Assembly: GCA_032250835.1 (NCBI GenBank)
Contig: JAVVEA010000002.1
Location: 278,596-342,595, forward strand
Source of the DNA: a bacterium
Lineage (GTDB): Bacteria; SAR324; XYD2-FULL-50-16
Reading direction: 5' to 3'
Length of the DNA stretch: 64,000 nucleotides
In this document: in pieces, positions 14,505 through 60,786 of the stretch
Layout: every line of letters starts with the position of its first letter
Numbering within the stretch: the stretch's first letter is position 1
Translations under genes and position numbers: made by a program
Notes under the pieces: model-generated
Database searches by the model: none
Seen by the model: the letters and a program-made list of their open reading frames with translations, nothing else
What the model was told of the DNA's origin: nothing

Positions 14505-14749
14505 GGCCTCGAAGCCCTAGGTCTGTAGGAATATTTTTATAGGGAAGTTGGCTTCGCCAACGGCTTGGGTCTGGCGCCACTCGCCGGCTCGCGTCGCTAC
14601 GCCCGTCGCCCTCGGCCTGCGGCCTCGAAGCTCTAGGTCTGTAGGAATATTTTTATAGGGAAGTTGGCTTCGCCAACGGCTTGGGTCTGGCACCACTCGC
14701 CGGCTCGCGTCGCTACGCCCGTCGCCCTCGGCCTGCGGCCTCGAAGCTC
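14505..14749. repeat. Tandem repeat, 116-bp period (~2.1 copies), REP-like hairpin family
   Basis: GGCCTCGAAGC recurs at 14505, 14621 and 14737; contains hairpins GTTGGC-TTC-GCCAAC, GCGT-CGCT-ACGC and GGCC-TGC-GGCC. Confidence 0.92.
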
Positions 14750-28527: not shown

Positions 28528-28755
28528 GGCTCGCGTCGCTACGCCCACAGCCCTCGCTTCGCTACTTGAATTTTCTGTGGGGATGTTGGCTTCGCCAACG
28601 CTTATGGTCTGACGACCCTCGCCGGCTCGCGTCGCTACGCACGCAGCCCTCGCTTCGCTACTTGAATTTTCTGTGGGGATGTTGGCTTCGCCAACGCTTA
28701 TGGTCTGACGACCCTCGCCGGCTCGCGTCGCTACGCACGCAGCCCTCGCTTCGCT
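28528..28755. repeat. Tandem repeat, 96-bp period (~2.4 copies), REP-like hairpin family
   Basis: GGCTCGCGTCGCTACGC recurs at 28528, 28624 and 28720. Confidence 0.92.
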
Positions 28756-50839: not shown

Positions 50840-51299
50840 CTCTTTCCTTCTGGCAATGGGGAGCACGAAACTACGGGACGAAAAAGAGAGATGGGATTAC
50901 TTTCTTTGGCAGGCAAAGAAAGTAACAAAGAAACCTGCCCCCAGGCGGCTCGCCGCTAAGAGCCCCTACGCCAAGCTACGCTAAAAGCCAAAACTCGCCC
51001 TCGCTACGCTCGAAGCTCGAACAGTTGGCATTTGGCTGGGCAATACTCGCCGGCTCGCATTGCTACCCACGCAGCCCTCGGCCTGCGGCCTCGAAGCTGC
51101 TTAGCGTGGCTACGGGCTCTAAGCGCCTCACCAACGGGGGTATCAATAGCCAAAAAGCTTCAAGCCCTCGGCCTGACAGCCTCGAGGCTACTTAGCGCAG
51201 CTAGGGGCTCTAAGCCGCTCGCAAAAGGGATCCCAAGAGCCGTACACCGCAAGTTGTGGGTTTTACCGCTGCAAAAACAGGTAACTGTCACCGGATTTT
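50840..51299 (-). repeat. Long structured non-coding element, copy A (inverted relative to B and C)
   Basis: 50887-50940 is the exact reverse complement of 54370-54423, and 51200-51230 of 54144-54174; 51268-51299 matches 54075-54106 at 27/32. Confidence 0.9.
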
Positions 51300-51616
51300 A
51301 AACTGCCACCTGATTTCTATGCTGAAAGTATTCAACTTATCCATATGCCCCACTTCCCGTAAATTAGTTGAAAGAGGAATCTGCGTGCGTAATAATGGCT
51401 TTGCCGCGAGCCGCTTTTTTCGCTGCAATTAGCTCAGGCTGGGGGCCATCGATTTTCCCCATTTTCGGGCTACCGATCTCTTGAGGACTATGCGAACATG
51501 CCAGACAATACAGGATACACGGCTGAGGCTCTAGAATTTGGGAGCAACTGGAATTTAGCAAAGAAGTGTTTCCTAGAAGAGTCTCCAAAATATAACCCTC
51601 TAAAATATTTTTAAAT

Positions 51617-52645
51617 ATGGAACTGATTGAATATATTATCTCATATGAAGAGAATGACAGAACCGTACTATCTGCAGATCAAACCGATGATTTAAGTGAC
51701 TGGATAAGCGATACGCATAAGGCGGCGGGTACAGACACTCGAGAATGTTCTTTTCAGTCGGATACTGTAGAGTCATTTAGCCTCTTTCAAGCGCTTGTTA
51801 AGAAAGAGAAAACAATGGGCGAGGTAGCAGATCGACTAAGCGAGATGCTACTTTCGGCAATGATCGCTTCAAACCCACCTAAATCCATTCCCAAGTGTAG
51901 GTTTACCGTCTGTTTGGATATAAGTAATTCTGCAATTGTCTTGTCGCTAGCCGATTATAATAAAATTATTGATGAAACGCACACAAAGCGCCGTGGCCCA
52001 GCTTATGATAAGAGGTTTAATCGACTTCGTAGTTGTGTAGTGCCAATCCGGATTGGTCAACCAGAGCTACATGTCAATATTACTGGCACTCAGGATTATT
52101 GGATCAAGGACTTTTTGAGTTTGCGGGTAAAACGAACGGATTTCGCCAACTCGGATACCCTCTATCGCGCTGTATCTCAAGTCTATAGTCAAAACCTAAC
52201 TAAGTTTAAAGCAGATAGGTCCTTACTCCTTGCCGAACTTGTGCGGGCTATTCGAGATCATGGTCAAAAAATAAATCCAAGAGATTTACCTGAAAAAATT
52301 AAGACATACCATCCGGTTGATAGTACTCTTGATATAAATGCTCTTTCTGAAAAAGTTCGCAAGGCAATTGATAAAAAAATCAATAAAGGAGAATTGGATG
52401 CGGAATTTAATTCTGATAAAGATGCTGTTAAGGGGAAGCACGCAACTTCCATTCACCATATTAAAAACGGCATTACTTTAACGGTCAATATTGATGATGC
52501 CGATTTAAAATCGTCTGTCTATAGGCTGAAAAACGGAGATCAGGAAGGCATATTTATACCTGTAAATGGGGCAGAAGGAGATACGATTACTTGGGAGAAA
52601 CCGGTAGAGACTATTGATGCAGCTGACGCAACGGACGGGCAATGA
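51617..52645 (+). CDS. Putative nucleoid-associated protein (YejK/NdpA-like, divergent)
   Basis: 342 aa; YWIKDFLSL....TD..NS motif and length resemble the 37-kDa nucleoid-associated family; AT-rich. ORF is solid, family call tentative. Confidence 0.55.
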   Translation: MELIEYIISYEENDRTVLSADQTDDLSDWISDTHKAAGTDTRECSFQSDTVESFSLFQALVKKEKTMGEVADRLSEMLLSAMIASNPPKSIPKCRFTVCLDISNSAIVLSLADYNKIIDETHTKRRGPAYDKRFNRLRSCVVPIRIGQPELHVNITGTQDYWIKDFLSLRVKRTDFANSDTLYRAVSQVYSQNLTKFKADRSLLLAELVRAIRDHGQKINPRDLPEKIKTYHPVDSTLDINALSEKVRKAIDKKINKGELDAEFNSDKDAVKGKHATSIHHIKNGITLTVNIDDADLKSSVYRLKNGDQEGIFIPVNGAEGDTITWEKPVETIDAADATDGQ

Positions 52646-54063
52646 GCCTGACCAATTCACTAATTAATTGCTTTGAAGGACGTATTGATGTTTCGGTAAA
52701 GGAAACGTTCTACGAATATTCCATTTCATTTTCGATTGACCTAACTTCGATAGAAGTAAAAGCGGATCAGCTCGTAGAAGTGCTGAAAGGGGTTAAGGAT
52801 CAATGGGAAATCAGTTTTTTTGATTATTCTGCTCAATTTGCCCGAGACACAAACTATCAAGTTGATTTGACTGTGTATCTGAGTGGGTTAAAGGATGATC
52901 AAGTCGATTCAGCGCCGACTAAACTATTGATCAAAAAGGAGTCTGAAAATGGCGAAATTATTTGTTACGATGCGAATGCATTTGTCGACTCCTTAAAAGC
53001 TGACCCGACAATCGTAATAGCTCAGTTCGGTACTCTGAAAAGGAAGTTGAGTACACTTAGGTTGCGATGTTTTGACGGGTCCAACGCACCTGGAACGTCA
53101 TTCCTAAATGCGACTGATAATGCACGCTTTGTTCAGTCAATAGACTGGGGCGTCCTTTTCCAGGATGCTCATTTTGAACAGTACAAGGATTACCCATTTC
53201 AGCCGGGAGACTTTTTCCTACAGCGGGAGACAGGGAGTAAGTCCCTTAATCGCATAATGAATTGGTGGACATTGGCAATGTCGATTTGCCTTACTGCAAA
53301 TACGTCTTCGATAAGTTATGACAAGCAGACTCGCAGGTTTTTACTGAAGGCCGTCTTCCATGGAGTAAAGCCAGTAAATATTGAATTAAGCTCGACGACC
53401 CAAGTCTCCTATAATTTAGCAAATGCCTGGAAAGATTACTCAGACTGGGTATTTGACGGCCCTGGTATATCGGGACGTCTTGGAGTTTTTCGCAACGTTT
53501 ACACAAATAGTGCACAAGATGGGAAGCTAGGCTATTACGACCTGCTAAAGCCAGTAAAACAAGCGTTTTCAGTATATTTGAAAACTAATGCCAAAGACTA
53601 TGTAGAGATTCATAAAAAAATATTGGATAACATTGATCTAATGTCGAAAAACGCTCAATCAGCGGCAGATTCATTTTCAGCCAATTTTCGGACTGGATTT
53701 CTAGTGTCCCTAGGTTACTGCATAATGGCATTTTTCATTAAGTACCAGTCATCTAATAGGCTGTTTTCGCAGGAGTCATTGATTATCGGGACTGTATTGT
53801 GGTTTGTCGGGATTTTGCACCTCTGTTTAATGTGCTATCTGGCGCGGCAGGATCAGAAGCTTTTACGGAAAAATCAAGAAAAAGCAATGAATTCCTTCTC
53901 TGCCTTACTCCAGACTAAGGAGTTTGAAGAATCTTTTAGCGAGCCATTTCATGAAATCAATCACTCGTTAAAAGATAAGCTTGAGGTTTATGGGTTTCTT
54001 TGGGGTATCACACTCATTCTTTTTCTCGTTTTCTTGATCTGGGGATTCAGTTTGGTGTCGTAG
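52642..54063 (+). CDS. Hypothetical membrane protein (large soluble N-domain, three C-terminal TM helices)
   Basis: ATGA overlap with upstream gene; hydrophobic segments GFLVSLGYCIMAFFI, LIIGTVLWFVGILHLCLMCYL and FLWGITLILFLVFLIWGF; AT-rich. Confidence 0.8.
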   Translation: MSLTNSLINCFEGRIDVSVKETFYEYSISFSIDLTSIEVKADQLVEVLKGVKDQWEISFFDYSAQFARDTNYQVDLTVYLSGLKDDQVDSAPTKLLIKKESENGEIICYDANAFVDSLKADPTIVIAQFGTLKRKLSTLRLRCFDGSNAPGTSFLNATDNARFVQSIDWGVLFQDAHFEQYKDYPFQPGDFFLQRETGSKSLNRIMNWWTLAMSICLTANTSSISYDKQTRRFLLKAVFHGVKPVNIELSSTTQVSYNLANAWKDYSDWVFDGPGISGRLGVFRNVYTNSAQDGKLGYYDLLKPVKQAFSVYLKTNAKDYVEIHKKILDNIDLMSKNAQSAADSFSANFRTGFLVSLGYCIMAFFIKYQSSNRLFSQESLIIGTVLWFVGILHLCLMCYLARQDQKLLRKNQEKAMNSFSALLQTKEFEESFSEPFHEINHSLKDKLEVYGFLWGITLILFLVFLIWGFSLVS

Positions 54064-54074
54064 ATGAGGGCTTG

Positions 54075-54469
54075 AAAATTCGGGGACAGTCACCTATTTC
54101 TGCAGCCATATATTTGGAGACCCGCGGATTACGCTCCTTGGGTTCCCTTTTGCGAGCGGCTTAGAGCCCCTAGCCGAAAGGAGTGTAAAAAAAGCCAAAC
54201 TGTCTGAGCTTCGAGCATGGAGAGTCGGCTTCGCCGACGGTTAACATGAGCAACACTCGCCGGCTCGCGTCGCTACGCCCGCAGCCCTCACTTCGTTCGG
54301 TGCTGCTTGGCGGGGCGAGTTTTTGGCTTTTAGCGAGTGAGGCGTAGGGGGTCTTTGCCGCGAAGGTGAGGGCAGGTTTCTTTGTTACTTTCTTTGCCTG
54401 CCAAAGAAAGTAATCCCATCTCTTTAATTCCTTCCGTAGTTTTGCGCTCCCCAGTACCAGAAAAGAGAG
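54075..54469 (+). repeat. Long structured non-coding element, copy B
   Basis: Starts 11 bp after the cassette stop codon; inverted match to copy A; nested REP-like unit at ~54222-54308. Confidence 0.9.
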
Positions 54470-54489
54470 ATCACCTTTGCCAATACAAC

Positions 54490-54612
54490 GCTCACCGGTT
54501 CGCGTCGCTACGCACTCAGCCCTCGGCGCTGATATGTTCTAAGGGAATGTTGGCATCGCCAACGGCTTTGGTCTGGCAACCGCTGGTTCGCGTTGCTACG
54601 CACGCAGCCCCT
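54490..54612. repeat. Degenerate REP-like hairpin repeat (~1.4 units)
   Basis: GGTTCGCGTCGCTACGCAC...GTTGGCATCGCCAACGG...GGTTCGCGTTGCTACGCACGCAGCCC. Confidence 0.8.
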
Positions 54613-54706: not shown

Positions 54707-56230
54707 ATGGCGGATCAAGCTTACCAGATTGCGGTGATCGGCGGCGGTATCAACGGCGCAGGCATCGCCCGTGAGGCGGCCTATCGAGGTTATCGCACCC
54801 TCCTAGTAGAGCAGGGCGACTTCGCCCAAGCCACCAGCAGCCAGTCTTCCAAACTGATCCATGGCGGCATCCGCTACCTAGAACAAGGCCGCCTGGGTTT
54901 GGTCTTTGAAGCCCTGCACGAGCGCGCCCATCTACTGCGCATTGCCCCCCATCTGGTCCACCCGCTCCGGCTGCATATCCCTGTATACCAAGGCGACGCC
55001 CGCCCCCCCTGGATGATCGGGATCGGCTGTTGGCTCTATGACCTCTTAGCCGGAAGCCGCAACCTAGAGCCCAGCCGACGGGTGCCCCCCAGCGAATGGG
55101 AACAACTGGGCGGGCTTCAGCGAGAAGGCCTCAAAGCGGTCTTCGCCTATTCAGATGCCCAAGTTTTTGATGCCCGCTTAACTCTAGAAACCGCTCTGTC
55201 TGCGGCCCAAGCGGGGGCCGATATTTTTAACTACACCTCCCTTGAGGCCGCCCAAAACCAAGGCGATGGCTGGCTTTTGGAATTAAAAGACCAGCGCAAC
55301 GGGCAAAGCCGCCAAATCCAAGCTCAGGTGGTGGTCAACGCGGCGGGAGCCTGGGCCCCCCAGTTGGACTCCTGGTTCACTCAAAAAAAGAAACGGCCCG
55401 GATTGCGCTTTTCTCGGGGTATCCATCTGGTCTTCGATGGGCCCGCCACCCCGCAGCCCGCATACTTGACGCTGCCCGAAGGGGGCCGGGTGGTTTTTGT
55501 TTTGCCCTGGATGGGTAAGACCCTGGTGGGCACCACCGAATCGGACTTTACCGACCCGCCCACCGCCAAGGTGCCGCCCAGCGAAGAGGAAATCAATTAT
55601 CTGCTAAAGGTTTACGGGCACTACTTCCCCCAGCTAAAGCCCCAGCGAGAGCAAGTCCGCTACATCCATTCGGGCCTGCGCTCCCTGATCGACCGGGGCG
55701 AACGGGACTTAGGCAAGATGTCTCGTGAAGCGCAGTTCGAAGGGGAACAACTGCCCGGCGGGGCCGCCTATTGGTTGGTATTAGGTGGCAAGATCACCAC
55801 CTACCGCAGTCTGGGGCGCAAGCTCCTGGACCAACTGGGCCGCTGGAATCCCTCGGACCGGCGGGCTCATCTGGATACCGCCGTCGAGCCCTTGCCCGGT
55901 GCGGAACCGCTGGATCAAACCCGCCTGTCTAAAGCCCGAGCCGACTTGGCCCAAGCCGGGCTGGGTCCGGCCCAAGAAGCCCGGTGGGTCGCCGCCTATG
56001 GGACCCGCTGGGTGCAGGTGGCTCGTTATTTACGCTACCGCGACACCAACGAAGACCTGACGGGGCAGGGCTTTCTGCGGGCCGAACTGCGTTATTTGGT
56101 GCAGCAAGAGATGGCCTGGACCTTGGACGACATTACCCAGCGGCGTACCCTGATGGCCTACGACCTGAAACCTGAGCAAATCAGAATATTGTCCAGAGCC
56201 TTAACAGAAGAGCGGCGCTGGAAGCCTTAA
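54707..56230 (+). CDS. glpD: FAD-dependent glycerol-3-phosphate dehydrogenase/oxidase
   Basis: IGGGINGAGIAREAA.RG, TSSQSSKLIHGGIRYLE, VVNAAGAW, GGKITTYR. Confidence 0.9.
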   Translation: MADQAYQIAVIGGGINGAGIAREAAYRGYRTLLVEQGDFAQATSSQSSKLIHGGIRYLEQGRLGLVFEALHERAHLLRIAPHLVHPLRLHIPVYQGDARPPWMIGIGCWLYDLLAGSRNLEPSRRVPPSEWEQLGGLQREGLKAVFAYSDAQVFDARLTLETALSAAQAGADIFNYTSLEAAQNQGDGWLLELKDQRNGQSRQIQAQVVVNAAGAWAPQLDSWFTQKKKRPGLRFSRGIHLVFDGPATPQPAYLTLPEGGRVVFVLPWMGKTLVGTTESDFTDPPTAKVPPSEEEINYLLKVYGHYFPQLKPQREQVRYIHSGLRSLIDRGERDLGKMSREAQFEGEQLPGGAAYWLVLGGKITTYRSLGRKLLDQLGRWNPSDRRAHLDTAVEPLPGAEPLDQTRLSKARADLAQAGLGPAQEARWVAAYGTRWVQVARYLRYRDTNEDLTGQGFLRAELRYLVQQEMAWTLDDITQRRTLMAYDLKPEQIRILSRALTEERRWKP

Positions 56231-60139: not shown

Positions 60140-60680
60140 TTCCCCTTTTTTGCGAGCAGCTTAGAGCCCATATAGCCACGCTAAGCAGCTTCGAGGCCGC
60201 AGGCCGAGGGCTACGTGGGTGGCAATACGAGCCGGCGAGTATTGCCCAGCCAAAAAGCCCGCTGTTCGAGCACTGAGCATAAGAAATAGACTTCAACGAC
60301 CTTTTTATATGGGGCAACCCTCGCATCGCTACGGACTCGAAGCTCCTTGGTGGTTAGGGCCTTTATGATACCCCCGTTGGTGAGTCGCTTAGAGCCCGTA
60401 GCCAAACGAAGCGTTAAGAAAGCCAACTGTTCGAGCTTCGAGCGTTAGGGAGTCGGCTTCGCCGACGGCTTACATGAGCAACACTCGCCAGCTCGCGTCG
60501 CTACGCCCGCAGCCCTCACTTCGTTCGGTGCTGCTTGGCGGGGCGAGTTTTGGCTTTTAGCGTAGTTTGGCGTACGGGGTCTTAGCGGCGAGCCACCTGG
60601 GGGCTGGTTTTTTTGCTACTTTTTTTGCCAGCCAAAAAAAGTAGTCCCATCCCTTCAATTCGAACAATAGCTTTGTGCTT
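60140..60680 (+). repeat. Long structured non-coding element, copy C (with nested REP-like units)
   Basis: Shares GCTTAGAGCCC, CTGTTCGAGCTTCGAGC, GGCGAGTTTTGGCTTTTAGCG and the pseudoknot-shaped motif (60602-60644) with copies A and B. Confidence 0.88.
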
Positions 60681-60786
60681 CTCATAACTCGAATGGCAAA
60701 GCTACGCCCATCGCTGTTTGGCTAAGATTTGCTTGAAAGTTGCTGTGCTGAATCGGTTGCGCCGAGTTTTCATGTGGGCAACCGCC

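Follow-up and report, generated by a model that had tools for sequence, protein, structure and literature searches.

The 64,000-nt stretch of DNA analyzed here, termed the window, is taken from a bacterium of the SAR324 lineage (GenBank assembly GCA_032250835.1, contig JAVVEA010000002.1, positions 278,596 to 342,595 of the forward strand) and contains three copies, A, B, and C, of a 43-nt motif. An initial annotation proposed that the differences between the copies compensate one another within an H-type pseudoknot whose pyrimidine loop lies as a third strand in the second stem, raising the question of whether such a fold is conserved and which molecule adopts it. The analysis favors, at a probability of about 0.6, the 43-mer being a conserved structural module in multi-copy intergenic repeats that folds as a strand-specific H-type pseudoknot with a major-groove triplex formed by loop L1. 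The pairings, a mirror rule relating the tracts, and the strand specificity hold across 30 copies, and the hosts of the module include at least Pseudomonadota, Fusobacteriota, and the lineage of the window. The physical formation of the triplex is predicted from these relationships.

Coordinated variation of the motif

The arrangement common to all 30 copies, read on one strand, is a GC-rich segment (S1a), a first pyrimidine tract (T1), a G, xTTAC, a second pyrimidine tract ending in G (T2-G), a loop of 5-6 nt, a C followed by the purine tract, and GTAAx. In the proposed fold an A.U-rich hairpin S2 of 11-13 bp would form, and the GC-rich segment 5' of T1 would pair with the 5' part of the hairpin loop as helix S1 of 3-6 bp. 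T1 would then occupy the deep groove, running alongside the purine arm in parallel and matching it base for base, giving ~6-8 U.A-U triples and one C+.G-C triple. The positions of the three window copies and of the parts of copy B are collected in Table 1; the coordinates and sequences first reported for the copies are exact, and the window holds two distinct variants, as stated. Copies A and B are identical, and copy C departs from them at motif positions 4, 10, 15, 22, 29, 36, and 43, with S1 (positions 1-6/27-32), the hairpin (15-26/32-43), and the complement of T1 with the purine tract perfect in both variants. Copy C would thus be an isomorphic swap of the C.G-C triple for U.A-U. The hairpin as originally drawn is real but one pair short, having 12 bp rather than 11, closed by a 5-nt loop.

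A degenerate pattern of the motif matches three times in the window compared with 0 matches in 100 dinucleotide shuffles, and profile searches find no further copies in the 64 kb. When seven random substitutions are simulated 300,000 times, S1 and an 11-bp hairpin stay fully Watson-Crick in 21 trials, and none survives when the match of the first T tract is also required, so the covariation of all seven B/C differences is confirmed as lying far beyond chance. Double changes are seen at 3 of 17 pairs between the window variants and at none when the partners are slid by 1-3 columns. Copies A and C are identical at 36/43 positions in the motif, 57/61 upstream, and 29/46 downstream; because the motif is no better conserved than its flanks, the compensation is not a by-product of low divergence.

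Relatives are found on plasmids and chromids. Searching 185,579 species genomes with the motif skeleton, variable positions left free, gives 0 matches, and a search of a phage collection with the motif gives none. A plasmid search with copy C returns a single spurious match, this query being uninformative because the low-complexity filter masks the T7/A7 tracts. The first relative is a 36-nt match in the plasmid collection, on Ilyobacter polytropus pILYOP01, which has the same stem, a different loop, an extra tract, and a flank complementary to its own loop. Follow-up plasmid searches return 164, 153, 56, and 55 records and place the family in intergenic DNA of Ralstonia, Burkholderia, Caballeronia, Paraburkholderia, Variovorax, Chitinibacter, Pseudoalteromonas, Aeromonas, Pasteurella, and Ilyobacter. 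Weak BLAST matches (E ~1-5) inside coding genes of Bacillus, Leptospira, Staphylococcus, Borreliella, and Enterococcus are treated as chance. The comparison set of 30 copies is composed of 27 loci fetched after BLAST with motif queries (L-numbered below) and the three window copies. Built from 20 plasmid copies alone, a profile detects the three window sites at full length and nothing else (next E 1.4).

Both crossing helices are supported by covariation in this set. For hairpin S2, 98.2% of the cells in 22 distinct rows are paired, four pairs show double changes, and 0 of 500 shuffles equal this result. For S1, a consensus bracket on the MAFFT alignment was dropped, one-base tract differences shifting its register, and a register-free measure of complementarity with a permutation test is used instead. 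The complementary S1a/loop pairs include GGCAGG/CCTGCC, GGCTGG/CCAGCC, GTGGCC/GGCCAC, TCGCC/GGCGA, GCTGC/GCAGC, GCCGC/GCGGC, and TGCC/GGCA. The complementarity sum observed over the 18 distinct S1a/loop combinations is reached in 0 of 20,000 loop permutations, the longest runs being of 6, 5, 4, 3, and 2 bp in 3, 7, 3, 3, and 2 combinations, respectively. Independent variation of the three tracts in a larger alignment, named at the outset as the outcome that would speak against the fold, is not what the 30 copies display; S1a with the loop, the hairpin arms with each other, and T1 with the purine tract change together.

The relationship of T1 to the hairpin is that of an image. In 28 of the 30 copies T1 includes a stretch that reproduces the purine tract in parallel, with T for A and C for G in the same 5'-3' order. 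Among copies with an asymmetric purine tract (A3GA4, T2 being T4CT3), T1 is T3CT4 in 13/13, and a direct copy of T2 is found in 1/13. The mirror form of T1 therefore fits a Hoogsteen strand running parallel to the purines, whereas a duplicated site or Watson-Crick pairing of T1 with the purine tract would keep the polarity of T2. Two tract classes are both present within three separate S1 lineages, indicating repeated origin or transfer of the coordinated one-base change in the three tracts. Two copies on the same Ralstonia wenshanensis replicon, p56D2 (L017 and L031), have the same S1a and loop and differ in all three tracts being one base longer in one of them, the additional base lying 3' of the C in T1, 5' of the C in T2, and 3' of the G in the purine tract. 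The pair is a natural three-way compensatory insertion.

Strand, geometry, and energetics

The lower stems distinguish the two strands. In 14 distinct lower stems, 60 Watson-Crick pairs, 6 G.U pairs, and 1 mismatch are counted on the strand of the initial annotation (forward for B and C, reverse for A) compared with 60, 1, and 6 on the other. The 6:1 wobble bias therefore indicates a strand-specific fold on the strand originally given. The same bias bears on a reading of the motif as protein-binding sites on duplex DNA, in which two inverted 12-mers with a 5-6-bp spacer and a third partial repeat would be arranged as in FRT-like sites or transposon ends. The arm-spacer-arm layout with an extra repeat agrees with this, as does the placement of A and B as inverted ends around a foreign low-GC island described below. 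It is nevertheless very improbable, as the third repeat is a mirror image and neither a direct nor an inverted copy, the spacer varies in concert with a segment of the flank at a distance of 20 nt, protein binding has no need of symmetric double changes in both arms, and the wobble bias is confined to one strand.

The geometry of the pseudoknot was assessed with A-RNA fiber parameters and is approximate. L1 with 8 nt can span the deep groove of an 11-bp S2, and S2 lengths of 11-13 bp are also covered; the lower stem begins ~13 Å from the end of T1, a gap that the single G can only just bridge. In the majority of the family the last S1a base pairs with the G ending T2, so that S1 stacks on S2, L2 is 0, and T1 enters the groove in register. 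In the window copies an S1 of only 4-5 bp beside the junction is compatible with the full hairpin. A 4-bp S1 (U7.G26 to A4-U29), which includes the covarying pair 4/29, together with three freed nucleotides would fit. The window version would accordingly be drawn with a 4-5-bp S1 and the full hairpin, and the leftover complementarity may serve a folding intermediate.

A different account of the same complementarities is a switch between mutually exclusive Watson-Crick helices without a triplex, in which T1 rivals T2 for the purine tract and S1 forms at the expense of the hairpin top, in an attenuator-like manner. The energetics in RNA are in its favor, with S1 (7 bp including U7.G26) and the 12-bp hairpin near-isoenergetic, and so are the perfect Watson-Crick pairing of T1 with the A tract in both window variants and the steric incompatibility of full S1 with the full hairpin in the window copies. 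The mirror rule speaks against it: in the 13/13 asymmetric copies, where T1 mirrors T2, pairing of T1 with the A tract loses its register and the terminal G-C pair, and selection for that helix would have kept T4CT3. The helix is also weak, at -1.4 to -4.4 kcal/mol in RNA, and such a switch is rated as rather improbable. A two-state element may still be considered, given the near-isoenergetic hairpins.

Several observations weigh against the pseudoknot with a third strand. The claim of an H-type pseudoknot with a pyrimidine third strand stands in its pairings and mirror rule over the 30 copies but not in the 6-bp S1 of the original drawing, which is sterically impossible with no nucleotide between S1b and S2b; full 6-bp S1 and full S2 exclude each other in the window because L3 is 0 nt and ~30 Å would have to be bridged. 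In most copies L3 has 2-5 nt, which is tight for 5 bp. S1 is merely 2-3 bp in Ralstonia, L020, and B. cepacia (5/18 combinations). The third-strand rule is broken in 2 of 30 copies, T replacing the expected C of T1 in L021 and T1 being changed in L020; U.G-C is listed among the tolerated Hoogsteen-pyrimidine triples in the available text of PMC7583470. The RNA folding energies are -12.2 kcal/mol for the S1 hairpin and -11.4/-10.4 kcal/mol for the long hairpin, leaving neither clearly preferred. The whole 150-nt repeat module around the motif (module M, see below) is no more stable than shuffles (z -0.44 and 0.18), and RNAalifold on this module keeps the long hairpin alone without broken pairs. 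The hairpin sequence is fixed by ascertainment because the copies were gathered by motif BLAST, the loop, S1a, and the side of the T1 insertion being unaffected by this, and the independent events are fewer than the counts because many copies are paralogous.

Carrier elements and the folding molecule

The suggestion that the motif is an unannotated noncoding RNA is upheld in that no Rfam family covers it in a scan of the 64-kb window at gathering thresholds, with none also at E<=10 around A and C, but it needs amending in Burkholderiaceae, where RF02421 (Bp1_684) overlaps the last ~12 nt. Weak Rfam matches to mir-3613 and Atu_Ti4 (E 0.16-3) were dismissed. RF02421, a Burkholderia small RNA (sRNA) candidate (Bp1_Cand684_SIPHT), starts within the 3' arm of the motif at 9 Burkholderiaceae loci (L016, L018, L024-L027, and L032-L034), its first ~12 model positions (AGAAAAGUNACC) corresponding to the end of the purine tract and the 3' lower-stem arm. 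In a difference with the present motif, the family models the downstream GC hairpin region and not the pseudoknot. Its matches are confined to the Burkholderiaceae loci, with none in the window. The candidate region gave a product in reverse transcription PCR (RT-PCR) in Burkholderia, according to the available text of PMC3521395. Because the RF02421 matches adjoin the motif at many loci, and BLAST with the motif gives ~20 to at least 40 places per Caballeronia or Paraburkholderia chromid, RF02421 appears to belong to a dispersed repeat and not to be an sRNA gene present in one copy.

A second RNA family lies upstream of the motif. In Pseudoalteromonas (L014) the motif starts right after the basal stem of a TwoAYGGAY match (RF01731, 56.7 bits) on the same strand, and in Aeromonas (L028) it follows, also on the same strand, a partial RF01731 match that, at 41.5 bits, falls short of the 43-bit cut-off. 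Extended TwoAYGGAY elements of Pseudomonadota are described in the available part of 10.64898/2026.09.22.753630 as having a 3' pseudoknot, flanking arrays of repetitive extragenic palindromic (REP) sequences, divergent doublets, mobile-like copy numbers, and an unresolved function, and the main text of that report does not mention a triple helix. The 3' pseudoknot of these RNAs, as described there, may be the present motif. Both are multi-copy intergenic structured elements, and window copies A and B are likewise divergent and flanked by REP-like units (D1, described below). The difference lies in the upstream module, which is not TwoAYGGAY in Ralstonia, Caballeronia, or the window; no RF01731 match is found in the 64 kb at the gathering threshold or at E<=10 around A and C, and no AYGGAY hairpins are seen there. 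As the window copies have no TwoAYGGAY match, the motif appears to be a portable unit attached to differing upstream structures.

Records of Ralstonia megaplasmids have ~4 places each; the figure rises to ~20 for chromids of Caballeronia and Burkholderia and to at least 40 for those of Paraburkholderia. In Ralstonia the motif is internal to a dispersed unit of ~235 nt (L017: 355/360-591, ends roughly placed) that is present in 134 Ralstonia records at 1-13 places each and has, on the motif strand, the order long hairpin, motif, GC hairpin. Copy number differs between strains among the relatives, and the known copies in the source genome are the three in the window. The 3' end of the element is directed toward the 3' end of a gene at 7/9 annotated plasmid loci and for 2/3 window copies, which is not significant alone.

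In the window the motif is carried by module M, a repeat of ~150 nt with exactly three occurrences, which is embedded in a mosaic of other repeats including the D1 unit of ~96-116 nt. Copy A is closer to C upstream of the motif and closer to B within it (43/43) and after it (37/46, compared with 29/46 for A and C), and a D1 insertion common to B and C is absent from A. Since A resembles C upstream and B inside and after the motif, the three copies appear to have recombined or undergone gene conversion with a breakpoint at the 5' edge of the motif.

The folding molecule is probably RNA rather than single-stranded DNA (ssDNA), a judgment made because of the neighboring RNA families, the RT-PCR product, and the gene-related orientation, none of which is decisive. 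In the opposing account an ssDNA or duplex-DNA structure (hairpin, cruciform, or H-DNA) would act in copying or movement of the element, or the symmetry would result from templated quasi-palindrome correction and gene conversion. The mobile-DNA behavior fits this, each Ralstonia replicon having 1-13 places and Paraburkholderia chromids at least 40, as do the switch in similarity of window copy A between C and B and the insertion of D1 units at differing points. T1 and T2 form a mirror repeat, the classical signature of H-DNA, the 12-bp hairpin is the clear minimum with DNA parameters, and G.T is also the mildest DNA mismatch. However, the primary sequence of the motif is kept across phyla while the flanking modules differ, and its orientation tracks neighboring genes (9/12 with 3' end to 3' end) and not one replication strand, A being opposite to B and C. 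The motif moreover adjoins families described as RNAs, and no transposase or recombinase gene is found in the 64-kb window. A DNA-level structure is thus considered unlikely.

The orientation toward gene 3' ends, in 9/12 cases, would also suit a plain bidirectional transcription terminator with a hairpin and U-rich tract on each strand. In Burkholderiales the T-rich arm comes after a GC hairpin when the opposite strand is read, and T1 comes after a long GC-rich hairpin on the motif strand; a consensus scan flags weak hairpin-plus-T sites ending in T1 for A and B, with none for C. Such a terminator leaves the identical tracts across phyla, the S1a/loop covariation, and the mirror rule unexplained; in the window copies the opposite strand is devoid of the GC hairpin, and the long hairpin, itself A.U-rich, lacks a following U-run, making this reading highly unlikely compared with a pseudoknot module.

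Table 1. Positions in the window of the motif copies, the parts of copy B, and the repeats that carry them
Feature	Position	Strand	Composition	Evidence
Copy A	50897..50939	-	exact reverse complement of B	plasmid-only profile, E 1.9e-6
Copy B	54371..54413	+	whole pseudoknot module	plasmid-only profile matches full length, E 3.5e-6
Copy C	60602..60644	+	variant with 7 compensatory differences: T7/T7/A7 tracts, GGCTGG/CCAGCC, CTAC/GTAG	profile without window rows, E 6.5e-4
S1a (copy B)	54371..54376	+	GGCAGG, partner of loop segment 54397-54402	family-wide S1a/loop covariation
T1 (copy B)	54377..54383	+	TTTCTTT, candidate Hoogsteen third strand (loop L1), then G at 54384	parallel image of purine tract
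S2 hairpin 5' arm (copy B)	54385..54396	+	TTAC (lower stem), TTTCTTT (T2), G	
Hairpin loop and closing C, S1b (copy B)	54397..54402	+	CCTGC + C	
S2 3' arm (copy B)	54403..54413	+	purine tract AAAGAAA + GTAA	
Module M with copy A	50848..51000	-	repeat of ~150 nt	
Module M with copy B	54313..54462	+	repeat of ~150 nt	
Module M with copy C	60541..60693	+	repeat of ~150 nt	
Shared repeat segments 5' of M, copy A	51006..51302	-	split by D1 unit at 51037-51110	
Shared repeat segments 5' of M, copy B	54072..54312	+	includes inserted D1 unit (~54222-54316)	
Shared repeat segments 5' of M, copy C	60148..60540	+	includes D1 units (60173-60254 inverted, ~60450-60544)	

D1 is a REP-like repeat family with the core TCGCGTCGCTACGC..GCCCTC, a pattern matched exactly at 8 sites in the window. 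Units of 116 nt and 96 nt are arrayed in tandem directly downstream of tRNA-Ser genes (14505-14749 and 28528-28755), and single units are found at 51037-51110, 54222-54316, 54482-54612, 60173-60254, and 60450-60544. D1 behaves as a small mobile unit, because it is inserted at differing points and orientations in the three motif-bearing elements. A search of the 185,579 species genomes with the D1 core gives 12 loci in metagenome-assembled genomes, one in each (10 Akkermansia sp., 1 Akkermansiaceae, and 1 Oscillospiraceae). These have only the ~40-nt core in common with the window units and hold it inside a different hairpin element flanked by GGCGCGATTTTT...AAAATCGCGCC, and neither the motif nor module M is found in the 12 loci. 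The ~40-nt core is common to very distant bacteria. The upstream module of the Ralstonia unit (L017: 448-591, L021, and L031) is a near-perfect hairpin of ~140 nt, and its loop (AACTCGCTTCGCTCAAACAG) resembles the CTCGCTTCGCTC-type strings of the window D1 repeats and of the Akkermansia element.

Exactly between the divergent copies A and B lies a 2.8-kb low-GC island (51303-54071, GC 0.39-0.43 compared with 0.55-0.62 in the flanks) with two overlapping open reading frames, 51617-52645 (342 amino acids) and 52642-54063 (473 amino acids). Searches of both in Pfam, PADLOC, and NCBIfam give no match. By comparison with the ESM Atlas (feature score 0.95, TM 0.62) the 342-residue product is similar to nucleoid-associated proteins of the NA37 type; the 473-residue product has C-terminal hydrophobic segments, its ESM Atlas look-alikes are unnamed clusters, and no homologue is found among 5.8 billion clusters. 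Assignment of the two frames as a transposase or recombinase was rejected, there being no family matches and the look-alikes being NA37-type or unnamed. The island may be cargo captured between the inverted pair of elements or a small defense-type insert.

The window lies in chromosomal DNA and has a GC content of 54%; its genes include uvrA, three for tRNA-Ser, those of the seryl- and lysyl-tRNA synthetases, and many for hybrid histidine kinases. It also encodes a DsrC-like protein, the lysyl-tRNA synthetase being of class I and several of the hybrid kinases of the 7TMR-DISM type. The host lineage is very poorly sampled, the best non-self relative of a glpD-like protein (54707-56230) being 62% identical, with named relatives in Cloacimonadota, SAR324, and Desulfoplanes.

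Comparison with known repeats and triple helices

Being short, structured, intergenic, multi-copy, and variable in number between strains, the elements resemble REP, REPIN, and miniature inverted-repeat transposable element (MITE) repeats, and the window copies lie within a repeat mosaic. The usual REPs are genus-specific, whereas the core of the motif is kept across phyla. Integron attC sites, ends of the IS200/IS605 or RAYT type, Xer/dif-like sites, and CRISPR repeats were dropped as candidates, the signature sequences being missing, the repeat orientation wrong, and the enzymes absent from the window.

The proposed fold most closely resembles the pseudoknots of telomerase RNA and the SAM-II, SAM-V, and preQ1-II riboswitches, with crossing S1 and S2 and a U-rich L1 that would form U.A-U triples parallel to the purine strand of S2. 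L2 is 0 in most family members, which would let the triples begin at the junction, as in triplex H-type pseudoknots. That class is described in the available text of PMC7583470, which gives 2-3 canonical triples for the triplexes of bacterial riboswitches. In a difference with these, the potential run in the motif is 7-8 consecutive triples including one C+.G-C. L3 is also very short (0-5 nt) compared with riboswitch pseudoknots, and the copies, mostly tail-to-tail with genes and located in dispersed repeats, have no context of ligand binding or gene control. H-type pseudoknots with triples and the pseudoknot reported on TwoAYGGAY elements are already known. The literature searched does not contain the reading as a long mirror-symmetric triplex, its spread over unrelated upstream modules and phyla, or the overlap with RF02421, and a literature search with strings of the motif sequence returns only unrelated eukaryotic primers and sequences.

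If the reading is correct, it would offer a structural way into the TwoAYGGAY-type elements, for which function and spread are unexplained according to the available part of 10.64898/2026.09.22.753630. Bacterial triple helices have so far been short riboswitch ligand pockets, the long stabilizing U.A-U helices coming from eukaryotes, their viruses, and transposons, as far as the available sources describe them. The class of long triplexes would thus be extended to prokaryotes by a clamp-closed module of 7-8 triples. The natural isomorphic swaps of triples and the coordinated one-base insertions would be of use for testing triplex rules, and the motif would mark a common unannotated intergenic feature of Burkholderiales and marine gammaproteobacteria.

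The order of tracts in MALAT1 is U-rich motif 1 (Hoogsteen), U-rich motif 2 (Watson-Crick), and an A-rich tract, with motif 1 mirroring motif 2, and triple helices of the type of the element for nuclear expression (ENE) are also found in RNAs of plant and fungal transposable elements. The present motif has the same tract order, a T1 mirroring T2, a predicted lone C+.G-C within a U.A-U stack, and a link to repeated or mobile sequences. For ENE/MALAT1-type elements a long U.A-U helix with C.G-C is confirmed in the available part of a review. In a difference with these, there is no upper stem-loop between the U-rich tracts and no ENE-type internal loop, a linker of 5-6 nt that pairs with the 3' arm being present in its place. 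The clamp is a helix of the loop with the 5' flank and not a lower stem, and the host is bacterial. By analogy with ENE and MALAT1, the module might act as a compact, nuclease-resistant structural or stability domain of the element transcript, a role that is doubtful. Also tentative, and somewhat better regarded as a possibility, is the broader proposal of a bacterial counterpart of the ENE/MALAT1 and telomerase triple helices, in which 7-8 triples clamped by a pseudoknot, far longer than in known prokaryotic RNA triplexes and portable across families of mobile-like noncoding elements (of TwoAYGGAY type and others) in several phyla, would protect or organize the element RNA or serve as its copying intermediate.

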